This document shows positions 13,268 to 46,575 of a DNA stretch of 64,000 nt, piece after piece (position 1 is the stretch's first letter; every line of letters begins with the position of its first letter). The stretch spans positions 65,559 to 129,558 of the IMG/VR virus record IMGVR_UViG_3300009593_000010; one strand, given 5' to 3'. Origin of the DNA: a virus. A program made the position numbers and the translations under genes. A model generated the notes under the pieces. The model saw only the letters and a program-made list of their open reading frames with translations, searched no databases and had not been told where the DNA came from.

Positions 13268-13819
13268 ATGACTGAGAAAAAGAAACCAGAACATTATGTA
13301 AACAATAAAGAGTTTACTGCAGCCATTACTGCACATAACATTGCAGTGAAAGAAGCAGTTAAAGCTGGAAAAGAACCACCTCGTGTAACTGAATATATTG
13401 GGGAGTGTATCTATAAGATTGCAACTAGGTTATCAACCAAACCAAACTTCATTAACTATTCCTATAGGGATGAAATGATTTGTGATGGTATTGAGAACTG
13501 TTTGCAGTATATAAACAACTTTAATCCAGAAAAATCTAGTAATGCTTTTGCATATATTACTCAGATCATATATTATGCATTTCTTCGTAGGATACAGAAA
13601 GAAAAGAAACAATCTGCAATCAAGCAGAAAGCAATTATGCAAGCAGGTGTATTATTCGATGCCGTAGGTACTATGGACGGAGATGATAGACAATACACTA
13701 ATTCATATGTAGACTTTCTTCAAGAGAACATGAACGAAGTGAACTATAAACCAAGAGGCAAAAAACCAAAAGAGAAATCTAGTAAAGGCGTAGAGAACTT
13801 TTATCAGTCCACCAAATAA
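13268..13819 (+). CDS. gp55: late sigma factor
   Basis: HYVNNKEF, YSYRDEMICDGIENC, NAFAYITQIIYYAFLRRIQKEKKQ. Confidence 0.97.
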   Translation: MTEKKKPEHYVNNKEFTAAITAHNIAVKEAVKAGKEPPRVTEYIGECIYKIATRLSTKPNFINYSYRDEMICDGIENCLQYINNFNPEKSSNAFAYITQIIYYAFLRRIQKEKKQSAIKQKAIMQAGVLFDAVGTMDGDDRQYTNSYVDFLQENMNEVNYKPRGKKPKEKSSKGVENFYQSTK

Positions 13820-35401: not shown

Positions 35402-36325
35402 ATGGCATTACTGAAATTCAACGACACATATAAAGGGGTGACGAATTCTCCTACTATGGAAATTAAGAATAGAACTATGAGTAAGATATTCAAACTAAAA
35501 GAAGTAGAAAGAAGAGTTTTATTTGCAGAGTTTGCTCAAGCTGCATATTGGAATAGTGCAAAAGCAAAGACCTTTGGTAAGTCAAAGGGTATGACTGCAC
35601 ATACCTTAATCGACATAGAAGGTGCTCAGGTGCATGTATGGCACTCTAATGAGGACTTAATTATAGGTGCAAGGGGTACAGAACCCACAGAAATGAATGA
35701 CATTTATGCAGATTTAGAAGTATTTAAAGACGATGCATTTACAGGTGTAGGACAAATACATCAAGGTTTCAGAGAAGAAGTAGATAAGGTCTGGGACAAA
35801 GTATTTGGAAGAGTAAACAAATACGGAATGAAAGGTAAGGTTGCAAAGAAAATGTGGGTATGTGGTCATTCACTAGGTGGTGCAATGGCAACCCTTATTG
35901 CATCCAGACTAGAATATAATGCAAAAGAAAAATTTAATAATGGTATGGAGTTAGTACATTCACCAATCAATGGTTGGGATGTTGATACTCTTTACACATA
36001 TGGTTCACCAAGAGTTGGTGGCCCTGTGTTCTCGAAATGGTGTGATAAACATTTAAACCATCAAAGATTCGTGAACAATAACGATGTTGTACCTTGTGTA
36101 CCATCTGTTCTCAGATGGAAACATAATGGTAATTGTAAGTATATAATGAGTACAGGTGAAGTAACAAATCTAGGTCGATGGTCTATGAAGAGAATCAAAG
36201 ACAAGGGTTGGAGTTTACTAACTACCATCATCAAAGGAAGATTAGATATCGTTGCCGATCATAATATACAAGATTACATTGATCATTTAACCAACGATAT
36301 GGAAATAAAACAAGTACAGAGGTAG
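35402..36325 (+). CDS. class 3 lipase
   Basis: RGTE, HQGF, GHSLGGA nucleophile elbow, TYGSPRVG, DVVPCVP, H..DY. Confidence 0.9.
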   Translation: MALLKFNDTYKGVTNSPTMEIKNRTMSKIFKLKEVERRVLFAEFAQAAYWNSAKAKTFGKSKGMTAHTLIDIEGAQVHVWHSNEDLIIGARGTEPTEMNDIYADLEVFKDDAFTGVGQIHQGFREEVDKVWDKVFGRVNKYGMKGKVAKKMWVCGHSLGGAMATLIASRLEYNAKEKFNNGMELVHSPINGWDVDTLYTYGSPRVGGPVFSKWCDKHLNHQRFVNNNDVVPCVPSVLRWKHNGNCKYIMSTGEVTNLGRWSMKRIKDKGWSLLTTIIKGRLDIVADHNIQDYIDHLTNDMEIKQVQR

Positions 36326-36329
36326 TAAC

Positions 36330-36668
36330 ATGTATATGTTACTCATCCTCGCACTCAAGAGTATTCTCTCGACAGTTATAGGTTCAACATTTTACAAATG
36401 GTTCCAGTCAACTAAGGTTGGAGTTTGGTTTCAGCTTAAGGTGAACAAATTCATGGAATATTTGTCAACTAAATATGATATAGAGATTACCAAGAAAGAC
36501 GCAAAGTGGAGACAAGATTATCCATTACTTGCAGATAGGGTCGATAAACTAGAATCTATGGCACATCCTAAATGTGGATTAGATGGTTTCGATGGTTATC
36601 AACCTCTTGTTAATCGAATTGAAAAACTTGAACAGGAACTTAAAAATGTCAAAAAAGGAAAAACCTAA
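36330..36668 (+). CDS. hypothetical protein
   Basis: ORF track; hydrophobic N-terminus and coiled-coil C-terminus. Confidence 0.6.
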   Translation: MYMLLILALKSILSTVIGSTFYKWFQSTKVGVWFQLKVNKFMEYLSTKYDIEITKKDAKWRQDYPLLADRVDKLESMAHPKCGLDGFDGYQPLVNRIEKLEQELKNVKKGKT

Positions 36669-37662
36669 TCATTATGTCGTTGGAAGATGGACTTCTAACT
36701 GGCACCAACTTAAACTATTTCTAACAGTCTTATTCAAAAGACTAGATACTTCAAAGAACGAATCTCAACACGAATTTGGTGATGCAGTCACAATGTTCTT
36801 TGGTATTGGAGAACAACAAGGCCGTGGAATTGCATTCAAATGGGCAACTGCACAACCACCTCAGGCAAAAAATATTACTGATGGTCATTGGTATGCAGAT
36901 ACAGAACTGTTAGAAGATTTCGATGCATTAAAAAAGTATAAGAAGAATACACTTGGTAAACGATATCAAGAATTTTTTCAATACTACAACGATTACATGA
37001 ATAAGAAGTTGGGTATTAATAAATGGATACCACAAGTATCAATGCATAGGAGATCCGCAGAGATGTTAGAAGCAGACCAAAGAAAATCTTTCTTAGGTCA
37101 AACTGCAAATGAAAAGAATACCAAGTCCTTTGATAATAAAAAGGATGACCCATTGAATATTGGATTGAACCCTGCTGTTGTAAACTACTATCTTACATCA
37201 CCTACAGTACATCCTCATATGAAAAGAGATGTACAAAGACTGGGAATGATGAAGGCAGTTAGGAAAAGAATGGGAGATCGTTTCTTTGGAATCCATGATT
37301 TATATCATGTACTACTTGGAGTTGGTAGAGACCAACTTGGAGAGATGTGTATTCAATGTAAGAATGCTGTTGACTCTGGATTGTATGGATTACATCTAGT
37401 GACATGGTTAGAAGCATGTAGAGAAGCAGTAATACATTTATCATTAACTCCATTCAAAATTAGAAAAGAAGCATATAGACTTGCAAAACTATCAGAGGAT
37501 TTATTAGTTCAAGACTATAAAAAACTATTAAAGGTTGATGTTGATAAGATTCGTAAAGACCTCAACATACAAGAAAACAAAATCTATCAAGACTTTTGTG
37601 GGGTGACTCACGAGAATGATTTACCAAAAGGTAAGTATAGAGTAGGAGAATATGGTATTTAA
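36646..37662 (+). CDS. second Coq4-like protein
   Basis: HDLYHVLLGVGRDQLGE (HDxxH(x)11E); NTLGKRYQEF upstream. Confidence 0.65.
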   Translation: MSKKEKPNHYVVGRWTSNWHQLKLFLTVLFKRLDTSKNESQHEFGDAVTMFFGIGEQQGRGIAFKWATAQPPQAKNITDGHWYADTELLEDFDALKKYKKNTLGKRYQEFFQYYNDYMNKKLGINKWIPQVSMHRRSAEMLEADQRKSFLGQTANEKNTKSFDNKKDDPLNIGLNPAVVNYYLTSPTVHPHMKRDVQRLGMMKAVRKRMGDRFFGIHDLYHVLLGVGRDQLGEMCIQCKNAVDSGLYGLHLVTWLEACREAVIHLSLTPFKIRKEAYRLAKLSEDLLVQDYKKLLKVDVDKIRKDLNIQENKIYQDFCGVTHENDLPKGKYRVGEYGI

Positions 37663-37684: not shown

Positions 37685-37692
37685 TATAAATA
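37685..37692 (+). promoter_or_regulatory. late promoter TATAAATA
   Basis: Exact consensus in intergenic DNA. Confidence 0.7.
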
Positions 37693-38158: not shown

Positions 38159-38187
38159 AAACCCACAGGAATGTGGGTTTTTTTTTT
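38159..38187 (+). terminator. rho-independent terminator
   Basis: AAACCCACA-GGAA-TGTGGGTTT followed by a T run. Confidence 0.9.
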
Positions 38188-38218
38188 GATAGAAAAACAT
38201 AAATGAAAGGTCAAAAAA

Positions 38219-38226
38219 TATAAATA
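38219..38226 (+). promoter_or_regulatory. late promoter TATAAATA heading the curli-like operon
   Basis: Exact consensus between terminator and AGGAG SD of 38248. Confidence 0.75.
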
Positions 38227-38247
38227 CTAGAGTAATTAGGAGATATC

Positions 38248-38562
38248 ATGGACTTTGTACAATTTCTGAGTGATGTGGGAGTCCCAATTGGCGGTGCAGT
38301 AGTCATGGGGTTCTTTATATTTTTAGTATTAAAACAGATACTAGATGGACTGGTGGATACAATAAAAACCCTTACTGGGTTTGCAAAAATGCTTGAAGAT
38401 CGTGCCCGAGTGGGTTGTAATGAGTTAGTTAAGATTGACTTGTTGGTTTCGTCTGCATTAGAACTTACTCCACCAATTGATAGGATTGCTCGTGCAGAGA
38501 ATTACAGGACTAATGAGAAAGGTGAACCTCAGAATGTCAAACTTGATGTGAGGAGAGACTAA
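38248..38562 (+). CDS. small single-TM protein (YvrJ/BhlA-like)
   Basis: DVGVPIGGAVVMGFFIFLVLK TM segment followed by amphipathic helix. Confidence 0.6.
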   Translation: MDFVQFLSDVGVPIGGAVVMGFFIFLVLKQILDGLVDTIKTLTGFAKMLEDRARVGCNELVKIDLLVSSALELTPPIDRIARAENYRTNEKGEPQNVKLDVRRD

Positions 38563-38876
38563 TGGAAGAATTAGCAGCTGCTATATCAGAATTTGGTTTC
38601 CCAGTGGTCATGGCTGGTGGGATGGGGTATTTTATATACTTTGTATGGAAGTTTGTTGTAGACAAATTAGAACCAGAGTTAGACACTATGCACCTTGCAC
38701 TTATAAAGTGTATTGATGCAAATAGAATGTTAGATAATGACATGATAAGACTCCAACAGAAAGTGCAAGTGGTCTTGGAGTATCGAGAAAGACAGAACAT
38801 GTTGGAAGATGCAGAAGAAAAAGAGGCACTAGCAGAGGTAAGAAAGAATGAAAAGAAAGGAAAAAATCCTAAGTAG
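38562..38876 (+). CDS. small single-TM coiled-coil protein, paralogue of 38248
   Basis: ISEFGFPVVMAGGMGYFIYFVWK; same architecture as 38248; TAATG coupling. Confidence 0.6.
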   Translation: MEELAAAISEFGFPVVMAGGMGYFIYFVWKFVVDKLEPELDTMHLALIKCIDANRMLDNDMIRLQQKVQVVLEYRERQNMLEDAEEKEALAEVRKNEKKGKNPK

Positions 38877-39354
38877 TATATTCATATTAGTTGTTTTATT
38901 TTTACATGCATCTAATGTGTATTCAGACGAGATAGTACATAAGTTCAAATCTCCAAGTTTTAGTGGAGTAGGAACTTCTGCACATTATCTTACAATCGAT
39001 TCACAAGAACAGGGTCGAAGAGAGGCAATCAAGTCAGATATAGAAGCTGCACTATTGGCTGCAAAGAGAGAAGAAGATAACAGTACACTTGCTAAATTTA
39101 TTAGAAATCTGGAGAGCAGAATTTATTCCCAACTTTCTAAACAATTAGTTGAGTCACTATTCTCTGGAGATGGTGCATCATTTGGTAGTTTCATGTTAGA
39201 AGGTAGTACAATAACATACCAAGTACAACCTTGTGATAATCCAGCTGCATGTACTGTAGGTGAAGATGTAATTGTAATGACAATTACAGCTGAGGACGGA
39301 ACAGTCACCTCTATAACTATTCCAATAGGAAGTGGAAACTGGGGAACTGGTTAG
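38848..39354 (+). CDS. csgF: curli assembly protein CsgF-like
   Basis: Signal peptide, then EIVHKFKSPSFSG, L.I..QE, F..NLESRIYSQLS..L, DGT.T.ITIP; directly before csgG. Confidence 0.8.
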   Translation: MKRKEKILSSIFILVVLFLHASNVYSDEIVHKFKSPSFSGVGTSAHYLTIDSQEQGRREAIKSDIEAALLAAKREEDNSTLAKFIRNLESRIYSQLSKQLVESLFSGDGASFGSFMLEGSTITYQVQPCDNPAACTVGEDVIVMTITAEDGTVTSITIPIGSGNWGTG

Positions 39355-40338
39355 GTGAATGTTAAACTTTTATCGTCATTAGCACTATTAGTCATCCTTA
39401 CAACAGGGTGTGCTAGTATTCCCAGCACAAGAGATTCATGCACCAAAATAGTCATGAAAGAATTCGGAATCTGCGTGGAAGAACCAGTAAGTTTGGAATT
39501 ACCCACACACGAGAAATTAAAACAATTACCACCAGCGGAAAAACAACCAGTAGTTGCAGTCTATTCATTCTTGGATAAGACTGGTCAAAGGAAACAGAAA
39601 GATGGTGCTGCTCTCTTTTCTACAGCAGTAACACAAGGTGCAGAAACAATGTTAATAGATGCATTGAAAACTGCTGGAGATGGGACATGGTTTAGAGTAG
39701 TTGAGAGAGTTGGTATAGATCACTTAACTAGAGAAAGACAAATTGTAAAATCAACCAGACAGTCATTGGAAGAACCTACAGGGTTAGCTCCTTTGTTGTT
39801 TGCTGGGATGATTTTAGAGGGTGGTATCGTAGGCTTCGATACGAACCTAGAGACAGGCGGTAGGGGTGCAAGAACATTAGGTGTTGGTGCTCAGAACGCA
39901 TATAGAAAGGATGTTGTCACAATATCCCTTCGAGCAGTTAGTACATTGACTGGAGAAATATTACTTAATGTACAGACAACTAAATCGATTTTGGCAGTCG
40001 CAAGCGGTTATGATGTCTTTAAATTTATCGATATGGATACTCAACTAATTGAGGTTGAGGATGGAATGACTGAGAATGAAAGTGTAACCAGAAGTGTTCG
40101 ATCTGCGATTGAACAAGCTGTTTACGAATTAATTCTTCAAGGTGAGGAGAGAGATTTTTGGAAAATCAGTTGGGCAATACCAGAAAGTAAGATTAAAGAA
40201 GGTATTAACGAAATTATGGAAGATGTAGAAATTGAAGTAATTACCGAAGAAGATATAATAGAAGTTGATCCACCAGATGAGTTACCATTAGGTATCCCAA
40301 ATGTGGATGAAAAAACCCTCGAAGAAATACGAGGATAG
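39355..40338 (+). CDS. csgG: curli secretion channel CsgG-like lipoprotein
   Basis: Lipobox LTTGC; VAVYSFLDKTGQRK, FSTAVTQGA, WFRVVER.G...L..ERQI, EGGIVGFDTN..TGG.GAR. Confidence 0.92.
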   Translation: MNVKLLSSLALLVILTTGCASIPSTRDSCTKIVMKEFGICVEEPVSLELPTHEKLKQLPPAEKQPVVAVYSFLDKTGQRKQKDGAALFSTAVTQGAETMLIDALKTAGDGTWFRVVERVGIDHLTRERQIVKSTRQSLEEPTGLAPLLFAGMILEGGIVGFDTNLETGGRGARTLGVGAQNAYRKDVVTISLRAVSTLTGEILLNVQTTKSILAVASGYDVFKFIDMDTQLIEVEDGMTENESVTRSVRSAIEQAVYELILQGEERDFWKISWAIPESKIKEGINEIMEDVEIEVITEEDIIEVDPPDELPLGIPNVDEKTLEEIRG

Positions 40339-40348
40339 AGGATAAGAA

Positions 40349-41074
40349 ATGAATAACTTCAAAAAAATAGTTATGATGTTATTATTGAGTCCTATGGCAG
40401 TGTTTGGTGCAGTCACAACAGATAATGAAATTGCTTTACAGCAAGTTGGTGATACCCTAACACTTACAATTGACCAAATCGGATATGGCAACAAGTTGGG
40501 TGGTACAATATCATCTGGAGTTGTTGGAAGTGATTGGATATTAACAGGTACAAGTTTAAATGTTAATATTGATATGATCGGAAACAGCAACCAAATCTTC
40601 GGGCCAACCATCTTAGATAGTTCTACATTATCAGTCACAATGACTGGTTCTAGTAATATCTGGGATTGGACTGTTGGTGCTTCTGGAAGTGCAGATTCAA
40701 GTAATTTACTTGCTGCTATAACTGGTTCATCAAACACATTCGATATCGATTGGGGTGCAGCTGCATCAGCTGAAAGGTTAGATATGGATTTAGATATTAT
40801 TGGAAGTTCCAATGTATTTACAATCGATTGGGAGTCAGATGATATTGACTGGAATGTTGATATTACAGGTGATTCAAATGATGTTTTAACTCACATATCT
40901 GATGGTGCTTACCATGAATTTAAACTAGATCACACTGGAGACAGTGGAAACATTGACATTATAATGTCAAGTGGAACATGTTCTGGAATATCTTCGTGTA
41001 AGTCTACTATTGATATAGACTCGACAAGTGATAATGCTACAATTACAATTAATCAAAAAGATACTGGGGATTAA
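40349..41074 (+). CDS. curlin-like secreted beta-solenoid protein
   Basis: Signal peptide; DNEIALQQVG..LTLTIDQIGYGN and repeated x-I-x-G-x-x-N units. Confidence 0.7.
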   Translation: MNNFKKIVMMLLLSPMAVFGAVTTDNEIALQQVGDTLTLTIDQIGYGNKLGGTISSGVVGSDWILTGTSLNVNIDMIGNSNQIFGPTILDSSTLSVTMTGSSNIWDWTVGASGSADSSNLLAAITGSSNTFDIDWGAAASAERLDMDLDIIGSSNVFTIDWESDDIDWNVDITGDSNDVLTHISDGAYHEFKLDHTGDSGNIDIIMSSGTCSGISSCKSTIDIDSTSDNATITINQKDTGD

Positions 41075-42194
41075 TCTCCTTCTACTATCTTTTGGTTCTT
41101 TCGTATATGCAGACTCCATAATAGGAGACATCACTGAACATAAAGGTAGTGGGGGATTAACCAGACAATCTGGGGAATCCCTAACTACTGCTGTGGATGT
41201 AGATATCGAGTCGTTAGACCATATCGAGACTGCAAATGGTAGGATGAAGATAAAGTTTGTTGATGATACAAACCTATCTTTAACTGAGCATACAGAAGTT
41301 ACGATAGACGAATATTATTTTGATCCAAATCCATCAAAGTCAAAGATGACAATGAGATTTGTATCTGGAACTGCAAGGTTCTCTACTGGTAAATTGGGAT
41401 TAGTTCCTAGAGAGAATATTGTAATTCAAACTCCAACTGCAACCATTGGTGTGCGTGGAACAGATTTCACAACCACAGTGGATGAATTGGGAAGAAGCTT
41501 AGTGTTGTTGCTACCAGACGGCAAGTGTGAGTTTCCAATTTTGGGTGAATGTAAACCAAGTGGTGAAATTACAGTAACAAATGAAGGTGGAACTGTAAGT
41601 TTAACTGAGGCATATCAAGCAACTATGGTTGCAAGTATTGCTACACCACCAATTCAACCCATAGTAATGGATAACATAAATGTATCCATGATAAACAATA
41701 TGTTTATCGTAAGTCCACCTCAAAAGATTGTTGATGCACAAGAAGAACAATCTGATAGTGGAGATTCTTCTCAAGTTAGTTTATTAGACTTTACTGATTT
41801 AGATTTTGATGCACTAGAAGAAGATTGGGAAGGTGAAGACGATTTAGAATTTACAGAACTCGATATTGATCTCCTCGATGTCGATTTCTTACAAGATGTG
41901 TTGGTCACACTAGAGGCAATCGATGTTTTAAGTCGATCGCGAGGTGGTGGTGGTGGAGATCAAGGGGACATTGTTGGTACAACTGTAGGGTTTGATAAAG
42001 AGACCCAGTACAATACCATCATTGATCAAGGTGCTGGAGAAATCTGGTTCTATAGAGAGGTCAATGGTGTGATAAGTATCAGAATACCAATAACGACACA
42101 ATTAACATTGGACAGTGAAAATGAAGGGAAGAAAAATACTATTATTGTTGGGGATGGTCAGTCTGTTCTCATCACAATCCGTCAGAGCGGGTGA
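41028..42194 (+). CDS. FecR-domain protein
   Basis: Signal peptide; D.IETANGRMKIKFVDDT.LSL...T, TPTATIGVRGTDF; acidic C-terminal region. Confidence 0.88.
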   Translation: MIMLQLQLIKKILGINLLLLSFGSFVYADSIIGDITEHKGSGGLTRQSGESLTTAVDVDIESLDHIETANGRMKIKFVDDTNLSLTEHTEVTIDEYYFDPNPSKSKMTMRFVSGTARFSTGKLGLVPRENIVIQTPTATIGVRGTDFTTTVDELGRSLVLLLPDGKCEFPILGECKPSGEITVTNEGGTVSLTEAYQATMVASIATPPIQPIVMDNINVSMINNMFIVSPPQKIVDAQEEQSDSGDSSQVSLLDFTDLDFDALEEDWEGEDDLEFTELDIDLLDVDFLQDVLVTLEAIDVLSRSRGGGGGDQGDIVGTTVGFDKETQYNTIIDQGAGEIWFYREVNGVISIRIPITTQLTLDSENEGKKNTIIVGDGQSVLITIRQSG

Positions 42195-42930
42195 TAACGA
42201 AATAAAGATTGAACAATTATCATCAGATGGTGATAATTTAGTTCTTTTAATAGATCAGATCGGACATGACAATACAGTCGATTTTACTATAGATCATGCC
42301 TCTAATGAGATTGAAATAAAACAGACAGGTCAAAACAATATCATTTCTTATGTCTCTTACTGGGGTTCTGGTAAGAATTGGGGTGGAGATTTAGATGGGT
42401 CTGGTAATGACCTATACTTTGAACAATTAAATACTTTAGGTTCAGAAACAAATAGAATTGGATTCCACATTCCAGGCGATAACAATACACTTAAAATAGG
42501 ACAAGGTTGTACTTTCAATAGTATGGCTGATGTTTCATGTGGTGATAACTCATCATCAGAATATGGTGGTCATACATCAAATATAGATATCCATTCAGAC
42601 AATGTGACTATAAAAGGTGGTCAACAAACAGGATCAGGCAGTGCAGAACATGATGCAAAAGCATACTTCTATGGTGCAGATAATTCTTCTTTCTTCTATA
42701 GACAAATGGGTAATGGAGATAAGACACTAACATATGTTACCTACCAAGACAATAGTGAGGGAACAGTCCACCAACGAGGAGATGGTGATCATACTGCAAC
42801 AATAACATTAACTGGATCACAACCTACCACTTTAAACCTAAATCAAAATTCATCAACCAACCAGACATATTCACTATCACAAAATTGTCAGACCTCTGGT
42901 GGGTGTTCAGTCACAGTAACGCAGAACTAA
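42115..42930 (+). CDS. curlin-associated repeat protein
   Basis: Signal peptide; DNEIKIEQ, IDQIGHDN, IKQTGQNN, YRQMGNGD, VHQRGDGDH repeats. Confidence 0.72.
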   Translation: MKMKGRKILLLLGMVSLFSSQSVRAGDNEIKIEQLSSDGDNLVLLIDQIGHDNTVDFTIDHASNEIEIKQTGQNNIISYVSYWGSGKNWGGDLDGSGNDLYFEQLNTLGSETNRIGFHIPGDNNTLKIGQGCTFNSMADVSCGDNSSSEYGGHTSNIDIHSDNVTIKGGQQTGSGSAEHDAKAYFYGADNSSFFYRQMGNGDKTLTYVTYQDNSEGTVHQRGDGDHTATITLTGSQPTTLNLNQNSSTNQTYSLSQNCQTSGGCSVTVTQN

Positions 42931-44817
42931 ATGGGTAAATTCCTAACATCCTTCTGGATGGTCATTTTAGTTCTAGGTGGATTAACAACTCTTAGAATTG
43001 CAGACCCAGAGCCAATACAAAAGTTGCGAAATATAAATTTCGATTACTACCTTACATCTAAAGAAACTACCACTTCAAGTGACATTGTACTACTTGATGT
43101 TGCAGAAAGTAGTTTAGAACTCAAAGGTCAATATCCATTTCCCAGAACAGAATGGGCTCAAATGATTTCAGATTTAAGAAATGCAAATGCTGGAATGATT
43201 GGATTTACAGTAATGTATCCAGAAATTGATAGGTTTGGGGGTGATGAGGTTTTCGTCTCGTGGGTTAATGGTAATGGTATCATTTTATCCCAGACTTCAT
43301 CACCTAAAGGTAGGAGTGATATTGCACCATTTGTAGGAACTGCCGTCTTAGGGGATGGAGACCCATATAATTTTGCATATGAATATCAAGGTGTAGTCAC
43401 TAACATTCCAAAACTAGAAGAAGCTGCATGGGGTGTTGGTATGTTAAATTCTGCACCAGAGGTGGATGGAATCGTAAGACGAATACCTTTAGTCACTCAA
43501 GTTAATAATCAATTATATCCAAGTTTCCCTATGGAAGTTATTCGTGCAACTCAACAGAATAAAGGATACACCATGAAGGTAGAACCTTCTGGGATAGAGA
43601 ATTTTAGAATACCACCTTATGAACCAGTGGTGACAGATGAAACTGGTAGTTTATATGTAGACTGGTCTAAGTCTTTTCCTCGACATGAGTACGGGCAACC
43701 ACTTCCCAATCTTGAGGGACGAACAGTGATTGTTGGTTTGACAGCAGAGGGCATAGTTCCCATTGTTTCGAGTCCGATGGGTGGGGTGTATCCTCATGAT
43801 ATTCAGGCATCTGCGATTCAGACAATATTGGATGGGGTCTCCATTTCTCGTCCTTATTGGGGTTCCCTTCTGGAAATAGTTTTAACTCTAATTGGGTCTC
43901 TGGTCTTGGTATTTTCGATTTATCGATTCTCCGTTTTAACATCTGCACTCGTCTCCGGCCTTGTCGTTGCTGGTGTAGGTTTCTTGCCCTTGTTCTTCTG
44001 GACTTCATCAAGTTTCCTTATTGATTTAACATTCCCAATTATAACACTAATACTCATATTTAGTCAATCGAGTTTTAATAACTTCTATGTACAGTTCAAA
44101 TTAAGACAACAAATTAAAGGTCAGTTTGGTACTTACCTATCACCAGACATGGTAGACATGCTGGTCAAAGACCCATCATTAATGAAACTAGGTGGGGATA
44201 GAAAAGAGATGACATTCTTATTCGCAGACATTGTAGGGTTCACTCCTATAAGCGAGTCTTATATGAAGAGGGATGATCCAGAAGGTTTAGTAGAACTTAT
44301 CAATATGTTCTTAGATAGAATGACAAAGGTTATTCTCAAAAATGGTGGAACCATCGACAAGTATATGGGCGATTGTATCATGGCTTTCTGGAATGCTCCT
44401 CTACCATGTGAAGATCATGCAACTTTAGCAGTTAAAACTGCAATGGAAATAGAATTACTTACGGAACAAATGAATAAAGAGATTAAAGAGTCTGGATTAG
44501 AATTACCACCAGTGGTTATTGGTACAGGTATTAATACTGGCCCATGTATCGTAGGAAATATGGGAAGTGAATCCAGATTTGATTATTCAGTGGTCGGCGA
44601 TGCTGTGAATCTGGGTGCTAGATTAGAAGTACAAACTAGGACATATGATACACCTATCCTACTATCTGAATACACTTACATGCAATCTGATGTACCTTGT
44701 AAAGAACTTGACACTATTAAGGTAAAGGGTAAGGATGAACCAGTTAAAATATTTGCACCATTGTTTGAAATGCCTTTTGGGAATAGAAAAGAAGTACGGA
44801 AGTTAATTAAAACTTGA
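42931..44817 (+). CDS. CHASE2-domain class III adenylate cyclase
   Basis: DIVLLDV..SSL...GQYPFPR, DGIVRRIPL, three TM helices, FLFADIVGFT, DKYMGDCIMAFWNAP, DYSVVGDAVNLGARLE. Confidence 0.95.
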   Translation: MGKFLTSFWMVILVLGGLTTLRIADPEPIQKLRNINFDYYLTSKETTTSSDIVLLDVAESSLELKGQYPFPRTEWAQMISDLRNANAGMIGFTVMYPEIDRFGGDEVFVSWVNGNGIILSQTSSPKGRSDIAPFVGTAVLGDGDPYNFAYEYQGVVTNIPKLEEAAWGVGMLNSAPEVDGIVRRIPLVTQVNNQLYPSFPMEVIRATQQNKGYTMKVEPSGIENFRIPPYEPVVTDETGSLYVDWSKSFPRHEYGQPLPNLEGRTVIVGLTAEGIVPIVSSPMGGVYPHDIQASAIQTILDGVSISRPYWGSLLEIVLTLIGSLVLVFSIYRFSVLTSALVSGLVVAGVGFLPLFFWTSSSFLIDLTFPIITLILIFSQSSFNNFYVQFKLRQQIKGQFGTYLSPDMVDMLVKDPSLMKLGGDRKEMTFLFADIVGFTPISESYMKRDDPEGLVELINMFLDRMTKVILKNGGTIDKYMGDCIMAFWNAPLPCEDHATLAVKTAMEIELLTEQMNKEIKESGLELPPVVIGTGINTGPCIVGNMGSESRFDYSVVGDAVNLGARLEVQTRTYDTPILLSEYTYMQSDVPCKELDTIKVKGKDEPVKIFAPLFEMPFGNRKEVRKLIKT

Positions 44818-44841
44818 CAGATCAAGAATCTGTAGTATACT
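44814..44841 (+). promoter_or_regulatory. sigma70-type promoter, 16-bp spacer class
   Basis: TTGACA-GATCAAGAATCTGTAG-TATACT; ACAGA-N7-TCTGT. Confidence 0.7.
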
Positions 44842-44852
44842 GGTAAGTATAA

Positions 44853-44984
44853 ATGATAAAAGTAAAAGACCCTCTACTTGAATTTAGATTAGGTAGTCTA
44901 AAAAGAGCAGAGAAGAGAGCAAAAAATCCAGAATTTAAAGAATTGTGGAAAAATATTGCAAAAAACTTGAAAAATAAGGATTAG
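44853..44984 (+). CDS. small basic protein (43 aa, not in ORF track)
   Basis: MIKVKDPLLEFRLGSLKRAEKRAKNPEFKELWKNIAKNLKNKD. Confidence 0.5.
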   Translation: MIKVKDPLLEFRLGSLKRAEKRAKNPEFKELWKNIAKNLKNKD

Positions 44985-45000
44985 TCCTTATATATAATAG

Positions 45001-45085
45001 TAGGTATTAAGAAATACCTATTTTAGAAGACTTGCCCATTTTTGGGGAGTCATATAACAACCTTGCTTAACAGGAGGCAATTATG
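45001..45085 (+). promoter_or_regulatory. ROSE-like RNA thermometer in hsp20 leader
   Basis: Two upstream hairpins, then CTTGCT-TAAC-AGGAG pairing the SD with a bulged G. Confidence 0.6.
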
Positions 45086-45544
45086 GTCAAATTAACGACT
45101 AATGATCTATTCGATCAAATGTGGAGAAGGTCTTCTCCATACACAATAGGGTTTGATAACATCTTTGAAGATTTAAAGTTTGTATCAAACAATCAACAAC
45201 CCTCATATCCACCTTACAATATCGTAAAGAAAAGTGATGAACTATTCTTAATCGAAATTGCAGTGGCAGGATTCGGAGAAGATGATCTGGATATCGAAGT
45301 TCAAGAAAACGAACTTAGAGTGACAGGTGAGATTCTCGATGAAGAGGAATCAGATGAAAATATCCATAAAGGTATTGCAAATAGAAAATTCAGAAGAATC
45401 TTCAAACTTGCAGAAGACCTTGTGGTTAATTCTCCATCATTAAAGAATGGAATGCTAAGTATTCCATGTGAGAGGATAATACCAGAGGAAAAGAAAGCAA
45501 GAAAACTAGAGATAGTAGATACTGCTGAATTTTTATCAGAATAA
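45083..45544 (+). CDS. hsp20: small heat shock protein (IbpA-like)
   Basis: YPPYNI, IEIAVAGF, HKGIANRKFRR.F.LA, L.NGML.I. Confidence 0.96.
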   Translation: MVKLTTNDLFDQMWRRSSPYTIGFDNIFEDLKFVSNNQQPSYPPYNIVKKSDELFLIEIAVAGFGEDDLDIEVQENELRVTGEILDEEESDENIHKGIANRKFRRIFKLAEDLVVNSPSLKNGMLSIPCERIIPEEKKARKLEIVDTAEFLSE

Positions 45545-45557
45545 GAGGATTTTTCCC

Positions 45558-45590
45558 TTGACAAATCTCCATTCTGTGGTATTATAAATA
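45558..45590 (+). promoter_or_regulatory. overlapping 16-bp-spacer promoter and late TATAAATA
   Basis: TTGACA-N16-TATTAT plus TATAAATA at 45583. Confidence 0.6.
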
Positions 45591-45627
45591 TAACTATGAA
45601 ATTAATTAAATATCGCAGAGTGGAGCT

Positions 45628-46575
45628 ATGTCAACAATAACAGAAGAAACAACATATTCAACCCCAACGGATGTACAACCAAAACATCAATCAATTCCTT
45701 CTATGGAATTTCACAACAGAACAGATGATAATTTTGAAATGATACATTCACATTCAGCCTTTCTAGGTAAGAAAGTAATCGTATTTGGATTGCCTGGCGC
45801 ATTTACACCAACTTGTTCAACACAACAAGTACCAGCATACGAAGACATGTATGATAAATTTATCGATGAAGGAATCGATGAAGTTTATGTCACCTCAGTC
45901 AATGATGGTTTCGTCATGAAATCATGGTTAGAATCACTGGGGATAACCAAAGTTAAACCTCTATCAGATGGTAGTGGTGCATTTGCAAGAGCAATGGGTA
46001 TGTTAGTTGCAAAGGATAATTTAGGATTTGGAATGAGATCATGGAGATATTCTATGATGATCGATGATGGAATTATTCAACACTTTAATGCAGAACCTGG
46101 CCTGACAGATAATTGTCAAGACGATCCATACGGGCAATCTATTCCAGAGGTAATTTTAGAACAAATAAAACAAGACAAAGTTATGACCCCATATGATACT
46201 CTACCCAGAGGAATTGGAACAGAGGATCACATGGAACTGATAGGTCAACCAACTCCACAACACGAACCTACATTTGAAAAGGGGAGTTTACATGGTGACT
46301 CAACAATCGATCACAAAACAAATATACACGATCTAATAGGGGATGCTCAAATTAATGATGTAACCTTTGGATTAGTAGAAACTTATTTATTAGACAATGG
46401 ACTCACTGATGAATGGGTTCAAGAATATAATGAGATGGTGCAACAATTACCAGCATTTAATCTCGAAGAAACTCAATCAACTGAACATGATGAATCTGAT
46501 GACTTAGAGGATGCAAAGAAAGTTGAAGAGGGTATACCAAGTGGAACCACATCAAGTGGATCACTAGGTATATAA
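45628..46575 (+). CDS. peroxiredoxin (Prx5/type II) with C-terminal extension
   Basis: FGLPGAFTPTCS, SVNDGFVMKSW, FGMRSWRYSM. Confidence 0.92.
   Translation: MSTITEETTYSTPTDVQPKHQSIPSMEFHNRTDDNFEMIHSHSAFLGKKVIVFGLPGAFTPTCSTQQVPAYEDMYDKFIDEGIDEVYVTSVNDGFVMKSWLESLGITKVKPLSDGSGAFARAMGMLVAKDNLGFGMRSWRYSMMIDDGIIQHFNAEPGLTDNCQDDPYGQSIPEVILEQIKQDKVMTPYDTLPRGIGTEDHMELIGQPTPQHEPTFEKGSLHGDSTIDHKTNIHDLIGDAQINDVTFGLVETYLLDNGLTDEWVQEYNEMVQQLPAFNLEETQSTEHDESDDLEDAKKVEEGIPSGTTSSGSLGI

Follow-up and report, generated by a model that had tools for sequence, protein, structure and literature searches.

Curli-type secretion genes have been described in marine phages on several occasions. Zaragoza-Solas et al. 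(2020; PMC7029224) reported CsgF and CsgG from pelagimyophages, together with three genes that co-occur with them, and advanced the idea of 'sibling capture', and Buchholz et al. (2022; PMC9004378) found the same genes in the phage Melnitz and proposed a pore for the timing of lysis. The whole module was described in podo- and myo-pelagiphages by Wittmers et al. (2022; PMC9599517), who listed one or two 'histidine kinases', CsgF, CsgG, CsgA/B, FecR, a second CsgA/B and an adenylate cyclase, mapped these genes across the global ocean virome and reported their transcripts in metatranscriptomes; CHASE2, promoters, signal peptides and membrane topology are not mentioned in that paper. In the present study we analysed a further copy of this module, located in a stretch of viral DNA of 64,000 nucleotides (hereafter the window) that forms the second half of the 129,558-base IMG/VR virus record IMGVR_UViG_3300009593_000010, estimated to be 71% complete. 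As judged by sequence comparison, the locus is a copy of the type VIII (curli-like) secretion module of marine T4-like myophages of SAR11/OM43 and of HTVC023P-type podophages.

Since the fibre genes, FecR and the cyclase were reported in this very order in PMC9599517, the combination is known and is not new. An initial sequence-only reading of the window had taken csgF and csgG to be all that was reported from marine T4-like phages, and on this point it was mistaken. When set beside the pelagiphage module (Wittmers et al. 2022; HTVC008M; Melnitz), the eight genes and their order are alike, and the window represents another uncultured member with nothing different in kind. Its module proteins are 31-47% identical to those of HTVC008M and Melnitz and up to 83% identical to those of uncultured contigs, and most parts of the module are already named in the GenBank records of both cultured phages; for Melnitz, the labels are CsgF, CsgG, curlin-associated repeat protein, FecR domain protein and adenylate/guanylate cyclase. 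What can be added to the published accounts is that the two leading genes lack kinase features, that the FecR protein is a likely periplasmic partner of the cyclase, that there is a bacterial precedent for the FecR-CHASE2 pair, and that the T4-like carriers have a conserved late promoter.

For the sensor part of the module, the nearest described systems are bacterial. In S. meliloti, CHASE2 cyclases raise cyclic AMP (cAMP) upon sensing a protein signal via the outer-membrane barrel NsrA (PMC13001267). The same cAMP/Clr pathway targets SMc02177, an extracytoplasmic protein with a FecR domain, and CyaD1 without its CHASE2 domain is constitutively active (PMC5498481). A Burkholderia operon that is needed for biofilm encodes a response regulator, a LysM+FecR protein and a CHASE2 kinase (PMC5192318).

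The module in the window consists of eight plus-strand open reading frames (ORFs), which extend from 38248 to 44817, have intact frames and each abut or overlap the next. The sequence-only reading had announced seven abutting or overlapping ORFs while itself listing eight; the tight packing was borne out, the count was not. PHROGs families cover six of the eight proteins, none with a known function. Pfam matches were judged against the curated cut-offs. The features of the locus, together with the sigma factor gene that bears on its expression, are as follows (aa, amino acids; AF2, AlphaFold2, with its predicted local confidence pLDDT and predicted template-modelling score pTM).

13268-13819, + strand: gp55-type late sigma factor, acting in trans on the late promoter (phrog_234 'late sigma transcription factor', 5.3e-60)
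38159-38190, + strand: terminator-like hairpin closing the upstream unit, with the 9-pair stem AAACCCACAGGAATGTGGGTTT followed by a T-run
38219-38226, + strand: T4-type late promoter box TATAAATA, an exact match 22 nucleotides ahead of the ATG, with AGGAG in between
38248-38562, + strand: predicted small bitopic membrane protein 1, 104 aa, with an N-terminal transmembrane helix and a helical tail ending in RRD (phrog_18771, 3e-19)
38562-38876, + strand: predicted small bitopic membrane protein 2, 104 aa, a paralogue that aligns with protein 1 (phrog_18771, 9e-24)
38848-39354, + strand: CsgF-like, probably secreted protein, 168 aa (Pfam CsgF 5.5e-11, 43.2 bits against a cut-off of 25.8; phrog_35372, 9e-37)
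39355-40338, + strand: CsgG, putative outer-membrane lipoprotein channel, 327 aa, with an acidic C-terminal extension (Pfam CsgG 5e-49)
40349-41074, + strand: predicted curlin-like beta-solenoid 1, 241 aa, with a putative signal peptide and strand-turn-strand rungs (AF2 pLDDT 83.9, pTM 0.77)
41028-42194, + strand: probably secreted FecR-domain protein, 388 aa (Pfam FecR 6.7e-13, 49.3 bits against 24, residues 65-165; phrog_37870, 2.8e-63)
42115-42930, + strand: predicted curlin-like beta-solenoid 2, about 270 aa, with a putative signal peptide and strand-turn-strand rungs (AF2 pLDDT 82.0, pTM 0.80)
42931-44817, + strand: predicted membrane CHASE2 class III adenylate cyclase, 628 aa (Pfam CHASE2 5.1e-32, residues 21-325; Guanylate_cyc 6.5e-18, residues 425-604)

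The identities that had been assigned from the letters alone to CsgF, to CsgG, to FecR and to the CHASE2 cyclase were thus all confirmed by Pfam hidden Markov model matches above the curated cut-offs. The phage CsgG scored 166.9 bits against a cut-off of 20.8 and matched the E. coli CsgG structures at 4.2e-39 across residues 51-271. Its leader, MNVKLLSSLALLVILTTG-C, ends in LTTGC and fits the lipoprotein pattern, the last residue being the lipobox Cys; this pattern was found in 35 of 64 CsgG orthologues, a count that is limited by the start-codon calls. The loop A-x-FSTAV-x-Q is invariant in all 64. In the constriction loop the Phe is kept, while the position before it, which is Asn in E. coli, is Leu, Met or Ser in the phage proteins, and the E. 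coli Tyr is not aligned. The C-terminal extension of the phage CsgG comprises about 55 very acidic residues (40165-40338) outside the part that aligns with the solved E. coli protein, and the total length of the orthologues varies from 267 to 352 aa with the length of this extension. The CsgF-like protein begins with an N-terminal hydrophobic leader. Since a phmmer search with this protein against solved PDB chains returned no CsgF match and only spurious matches to polyubiquitin, it is the profile from which the CsgF assignment derives.

Like bacterial curli (E. coli csgBAC/csgDEFG), the module thus specifies a putative CsgG lipoprotein channel, CsgF and two paralogous curlin-repeat subunits with predicted signal peptides. 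In contrast to bacterial curli, the phage genes form a single operon with the sensor pair and the two small membrane proteins, under a phage late promoter. Alphaproteobacterial curli variants lack CsgC, CsgD and CsgE; CsgE and CsgC, which had been called unrecognisable beforehand, were without a match in the 129.6-kb record (CsgD was not searched for).

Both curlin-like proteins appear to be related to curlins at the family level and are predicted to adopt a beta-solenoid fold. By themselves, neither ORF gave a Pfam match above the cut-off. However, a six-frame scan of the whole record yielded five sub-threshold Curlin_rpt matches, all five of which fell within these two ORFs, and among the orthologues drawn from 80 related viral contigs Curlin_rpt was matched by 24 of 32 for solenoid 1 and by 21 of 37 for solenoid 2 (best E 2e-9). 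The two families are mutually homologous (hhalign probability 99.5%, E 2e-23), and a DNE motif directly after the leader is common to both. The top two PDB matches of the solenoid 2 profile were E. coli CsgA (8enq, E 0.0024) and Pontibacter CsgA (8c50, E 0.027). The latter was also the best match of the solenoid 2 model among 48,161 solved chains, with a Z score of 19.3, though with a root-mean-square deviation of 8.8 over 202 residues. For solenoid 1, the top structural matches were all beta-helices, and the best viral ones were proteins named 'Curlin associated' in UniProt (template-modelling score 0.77-0.79). A Foldseek search of the PDB with this model returned nothing at E <= 0.001, and the only matches of the solenoid 1 profile to PDB sequences were chance ones to retinol-binding proteins. 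Both AF2 models are all-beta stacks of rungs, so that the absence of a beta-solenoid, by which the curlin-like assignment could have been refuted, was not observed. Of the earlier assignment of two curlin-like ORFs, the kinship with the curlin family therefore stands on the orthologue matches, the hhalign result and the models, while a Curlin_rpt match above the cut-off in the window's own copies was not obtained.

In PMC9599517, FecR was annotated as an iron regulator. The protein encoded in the window comprises a hydrophobic leader, the FecR domain, an acidic linker and a small C-terminal domain. We rejected the role of an anti-sigma iron regulator because the protein has a cleavable-looking N-terminal leader and contains neither the cytoplasmic N-terminal anti-sigma domain nor an internal transmembrane helix. 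The phage FecR protein may instead be the periplasmic partner of the CHASE2 sensor, in which it would resemble the secreted FecR-domain partners described in bacteria (PMC5498481, PMC5192318). A curlin repeat in its C-terminal domain was not recovered: hhalign aligned only the signal peptides, and a PDB profile search returned nothing useful.

The cyclase has hydrophobic segments at residues 3-21, 312-330, 339-357 and 360-378, from which one transmembrane segment, a periplasmic CHASE2 domain, three further transmembrane segments and a cytoplasmic cyclase domain are predicted. Among solved structures, the enzyme is closest to bacterial class III cyclases, namely a Cya2-derived chimera (1.4e-35), P. 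aeruginosa CyaB and Spirulina CyaC. The catalytic set is full, as seen from alignment to CyaB, Cya2 and CyaC (D433, K477, D481, R549, N560 and R564), and in 37 orthologues the two metal-binding Asp residues, the substrate Lys and both Arg residues (D433, D481, K477, R549 and R564) are invariant, with Ser, Thr or Asp at the second specificity position. The Lys and Ser at the specificity positions of the window's enzyme indicate ATP as the substrate. This points to an active adenylate cyclase of a IIIb-like kind.

A homologue search with the FecR protein returned more than 6,800 matches of marine and phage-type origin and no bacterial context. Searching one genome per bacterial species with the viral FecR profile retrieved 12 phage contigs with the full module, mis-binned in bacterial genomes, and 20 true bacterial loci, whose FecR relatives share only about 29% identity across the FecR domain. 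A CHASE2 cyclase follows FecR in six of these 20 loci, directly in L095, L097, L099, L100 and L104 and with one gene in between in L098, and an outer-membrane transporter of the ShlB/FhaC type adjoins FecR in seven. Neither CsgG nor CsgF was found in any of the 20. FecR followed by a CHASE2 cyclase is thus a pre-existing bacterial sensor pair that is sometimes located beside another outer-membrane transporter, of the ShlB type. In one gammaproteobacterial metagenome-assembled genome (MAG; L098:517-5807), three consecutive genes encode a protein in which the FecR domain occurs twice, an outer-membrane transporter of the ShlB/POTRA_2 type and a CHASE2 adenylate cyclase, and ShlB-FecR pairs recur in loci from Gallionellaceae and Nitrosomonadales (L102, L105, L107, L109, L110 and L114).

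The phage pair shares several properties with its bacterial counterparts (S. meliloti CyaD1, SMc02177 and NsrA; Burkholderia BiofilmReg). The gene for an extracytoplasmic FecR protein stands immediately ahead of one for a CHASE2 membrane sensor. A class III cyclase provides the output in the phage, in S. meliloti and in the six bacterial loci found here, and both an outer-membrane beta-barrel and surface or biofilm behaviour are associated with the pair. The outer-membrane partner differs, being CsgG/CsgF in the phage and NsrA or a ShlB-type transporter in bacteria, and no bacterial locus examined here paired FecR-CHASE2 with CsgG.

The two leading genes had been annotated as histidine kinases in PMC9599517. 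We found no support for this label: the proteins are only about 100 aa long and show no HisKA/DHp or HATPase_c domain and no conserved His. No kinase domain match was obtained among 44 family members at E values up to 1, no His is invariant in the family, and protein 1 lacks His altogether. Instead, each protein has one hydrophobic segment, as had been noted from the letters: residues 10-28 in protein 1 and likewise a single N-terminal hydrophobic helix in protein 2. They match no Pfam family, and their neighbours in a language-model protein atlas were unnamed viral clusters only. The family is large, with 986 clusters at 50% identity, and among 50,697 phage records it was found only in HTVC008M and Melnitz, both of which carry the module. 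Distant members, whose surroundings were read in viral contigs, still precede CsgF in 19 of 19 loci and in L143. This suggests that the two small bitopic proteins are inner-membrane partners, tied to the module in all but one of the loci examined.

Two unusual arrangements of this gene pair were encountered. In one 72-kb viral record (L142 and L144-L146) the module is inverted relative to the pair, the curlin-like gene codes for about 600 aa, and the FecR region consists of two short, weak matches in separate frames, so that FecR may be broken there. In a 79-kb fragment of a T4-like phage (L141:2844-8682; estimated to be 23% complete), the pair lies ahead of the capsid genes, directly before a 305-aa ORF with a weak Pfam match, which by its position is possibly a scaffold protein, and then gp23. 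This fragment lacks CsgG; it has a gene of the Sir2 family upstream and one with a caspase domain (Peptidase_C14) that immediately follows the major capsid gene.

Expression of the module late in infection had been proposed on the basis of a terminator and an exact late promoter at 38219, and both signals were recovered, as the hairpin with T-run at 38159-38190 and as TATAAATA at 38219-38226. In keeping with the proposed gp55 control, the two elements of a T4-type late unit, the box before the first gene and a gp55-type sigma factor encoded in the genome, are both present. No RNA data set was listed for this stretch; one run, guessed to be RNA, has two contigs that cover 38343-38802 only and was not counted as evidence. 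The window contains 12 copies of TATAAATA, all on the coding strand, against an expectation of 6.8 across both strands. Of 66 distinct regions upstream of orthologous first genes, 29 have an exact copy within 150 nucleotides of that gene, which, with an expectation of 0.019 per 150 nucleotides, is about 20 times background, and a hairpin with T-run often stands directly before the box. The late promoter is conserved within the T4-like subset of module carriers; the loci without it probably include non-T4 phages.

To define the distribution of the module, 80 IMG/VR viral contigs with CsgG were retrieved and combined with the two cultured phages to give 82 loci. As far as each contig reaches, the order of transmembrane protein 1, transmembrane protein 2, CsgF, CsgG, solenoid 1, FecR, solenoid 2 and cyclase was found in all 80 contigs, and it is shared by the Pelagibacter phage HTVC008M and the Methylophilales phage Melnitz. 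Both transmembrane proteins, CsgF and CsgG are present in all 82 loci, solenoid 1 in 78, FecR in 74, solenoid 2 in 67 and the cyclase in 50. The same order was observed in the 12 mis-binned contigs and in 20 further contigs that were reached via distant members of the small membrane-protein family. Hence, the synteny check showed that the module order recurs in phage contigs, while the bacterial FecR loci are devoid of CsgG and CsgF. The 12 contigs (L083-L094) are filed in MAGs of Saprospirales, Synechococcus, Sphingobacteriales, Rhodobacterales, Pelagibacter, Planctomycetaceae, Maricaulis, Neomarinimicrobiota and others, and they look like phage contigs that were mis-binned; the one labelled Sphingobacteriales is, at 142 kb, as large as a phage genome. 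In eight loci (L046, L047, L050, L051, L053, L055, L067 and L075), 1.3-3.7 kb of extra genes are located between FecR and the cyclase, including ORFs of about 500 aa that belong to no Pfam family and a ferredoxin-reductase-like gene.

We favour the reading that the module provides the infected cell with a fibre or coat together with a sensor, and we assign to it a probability of roughly 0.6. The eight genes would be transcribed together late in infection by means of the gp55 sigma factor and the late promoter. CsgF, the two solenoids and the FecR protein would be exported across the inner membrane by Sec, and the CsgG lipoprotein, going by its family, would form an outer-membrane channel that is capped by CsgF. 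The two curlin-repeat proteins, again to judge by their family, would leave the cell by way of CsgG and then fold or polymerise as beta-solenoids on the outside, which would equip the infected cell with a surface structure that the host itself is unable to produce. The FecR protein would report the state of the periplasm or outer membrane to the CHASE2 domain, which would set the synthesis of cAMP in the cytoplasm. That the phage keeps the substrates and a periplasm-to-cytoplasm sensor beside the pore, as the sequence-only reading had it, agrees with the gene identities that were obtained. Of the consequences it had drawn, the coating or aggregation of infected cells and the coupling of envelope state to cAMP may apply. 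The decoration of virions is unlikely, since both solenoids begin with a signal-peptide-like hydrophobic leader and would therefore leave the cytoplasm, where virions assemble.

Several observations weigh against a fibre or coat with a sensor. Fibres, secretion or cAMP production have been shown experimentally for no phage copy, and no clumping of Melnitz-infected cells was seen by Buchholz et al. (PMC9004378). CsgE is absent from the record, the Curlin_rpt matches in the window's own copies are sub-threshold (best 14 bits against 20.7), and the best solved matches of solenoid 1 are SufD-type and other beta-helices (Z 17.4 downward), not CsgA. Both phage solenoids carry a conserved Cys pair, located near the C-terminus, and their Curlin_rpt is only weakly recognisable; E. 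coli CsgA is not known to contain cysteines. On the side of the sensor, a cNMP_binding domain, by which a phage-encoded cAMP receiver would be recognised, was not found in the 71%-complete record. The cyclase is present in 39 of the 48 loci that have at least 5.5 kb after FecR and missing from the other nine, so that the secretion part evidently does not require the sensor; an alternative CHASE2 output was not apparent in the cyclase-less copies, where only unknown proteins and the ferredoxin-reductase-like gene were seen.

Some of these points would suit a CsgG/CsgF pair that has been repurposed as a gated outer-membrane pore, either timing lysis in a pinholin- or secretin-like manner or admitting solutes, with the other genes as regulators (Buchholz et al. 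2022). PMC9004378 supports this with the lack of clumping, an extra CsgF domain and synteny arguments. The late-promoter box marks the module for late expression, the periplasmic gate CsgE is without a match, and the operon opens with two small single-pass proteins whose nearest named language-model neighbours are YvrJ (0.87) and the holin family BhlA (0.85), although these scores stay under the tool's threshold of 0.9. PMC9004378 called csgA and csgB missing, yet the operon holds two conserved, leader-bearing solenoids of the curlin type that are kept in nearly every copy and of which a bare pore would have no need; moreover, the invariant CsgG loop FSTAV fits a working polypeptide channel. 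We regard the lysis pore as unlikely. A different departure from curli would be that the solenoids are secreted via CsgG as a non-amyloid coat or adhesin, serving to mask receptors, block superinfection or bind particles, and do not form cell-aggregating fibres. The superinfection defence is among the options considered in PMC9599517. The models look like capped, monomeric beta-helices, with adhesins and two-partner-secretion domains beside CsgA among the closest solved matches, and the conserved Cys pairs and the absence of clumping in culture point the same way. Stacking subunits are nevertheless favoured by the Curlin_rpt matches of the orthologues and the CsgA top match, and the two paralogues mirror the major subunit and nucleator pair CsgA/CsgB. 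In addition, CsgF is always retained, and in E. coli this protein serves surface nucleation. A purely non-amyloid coat thus appears improbable to us.

That the module is a mere passenger, a bacterial cassette acquired by recent transfer and without a role in infection, could be argued from its location in a variable part of the genome, flanked by the replication genes and the structural genes (PMC7029224), and from the lack of curli genes in cultured hosts. We strongly disfavour this view and consider it very improbable, as the frames are intact, the catalytic and channel residues are invariant, the gene order is kept throughout over 100 contigs and two virus families whose proteins are only 30-80% identical (PMC9599517), and a phage-type late promoter has been acquired.

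Within the preferred reading of a surface structure with a sensor, a more specific role of the sensor can be envisaged, which we put forward tentatively and hold to be possible, if doubtful. The FecR protein and the CHASE2 cyclase might constitute a general reporter for outer-membrane pores, with NsrA and CyaD1/CyaK of S. meliloti and the FecR-ShlB-CHASE2-cyclase loci detected here as its model cases. In the phage, such a reporter would sense the load or blockage of CsgG/CsgF, or contact of the fibres with other cells, and convert this into cAMP, with the small bitopic proteins as an inner-membrane link, possibly to the timing of lysis. If this is true, the phage carries an autonomous secrete-and-sense surface organelle and not a set of borrowed biofilm genes.

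SAR11 and OM43, which rank among the most abundant cells of the ocean, lack their own curli genes. If a phage installs a surface secretion system late in infection, possibly with fibres and cAMP signalling, this could alter cell aggregation, superinfection, gene exchange and particle formation. This question has already been posed in the literature and is thus not opened by this window, so that the remaining interest lies in the function of the module and in the refinements made here, not in novelty. The corrections on the leading genes and on the role of FecR, together with the bacterial outer-membrane-transporter precedent, narrow the choice of experiments that are worthwhile.

The surroundings of the module were inspected as well. 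Upstream (35402-37662) lie genes for a class 3 lipase/esterase (phrog_21992) and a 359-aa ORF without a PHROG match, and an extra TATAAATA at 37685 precedes two small overlapping ORFs. At the downstream end (44814-46575), a near-consensus sigma-70-type promoter (TTGACA, 16 nucleotides, TATACT) overlaps the stop codon of the cyclase gene. It is followed by a 43-aa ORF, an Hsp20 gene (45083-45544) and another TATAAATA at 45583, after which a peroxiredoxin fused to a long acidic tail is encoded (45628-46575).

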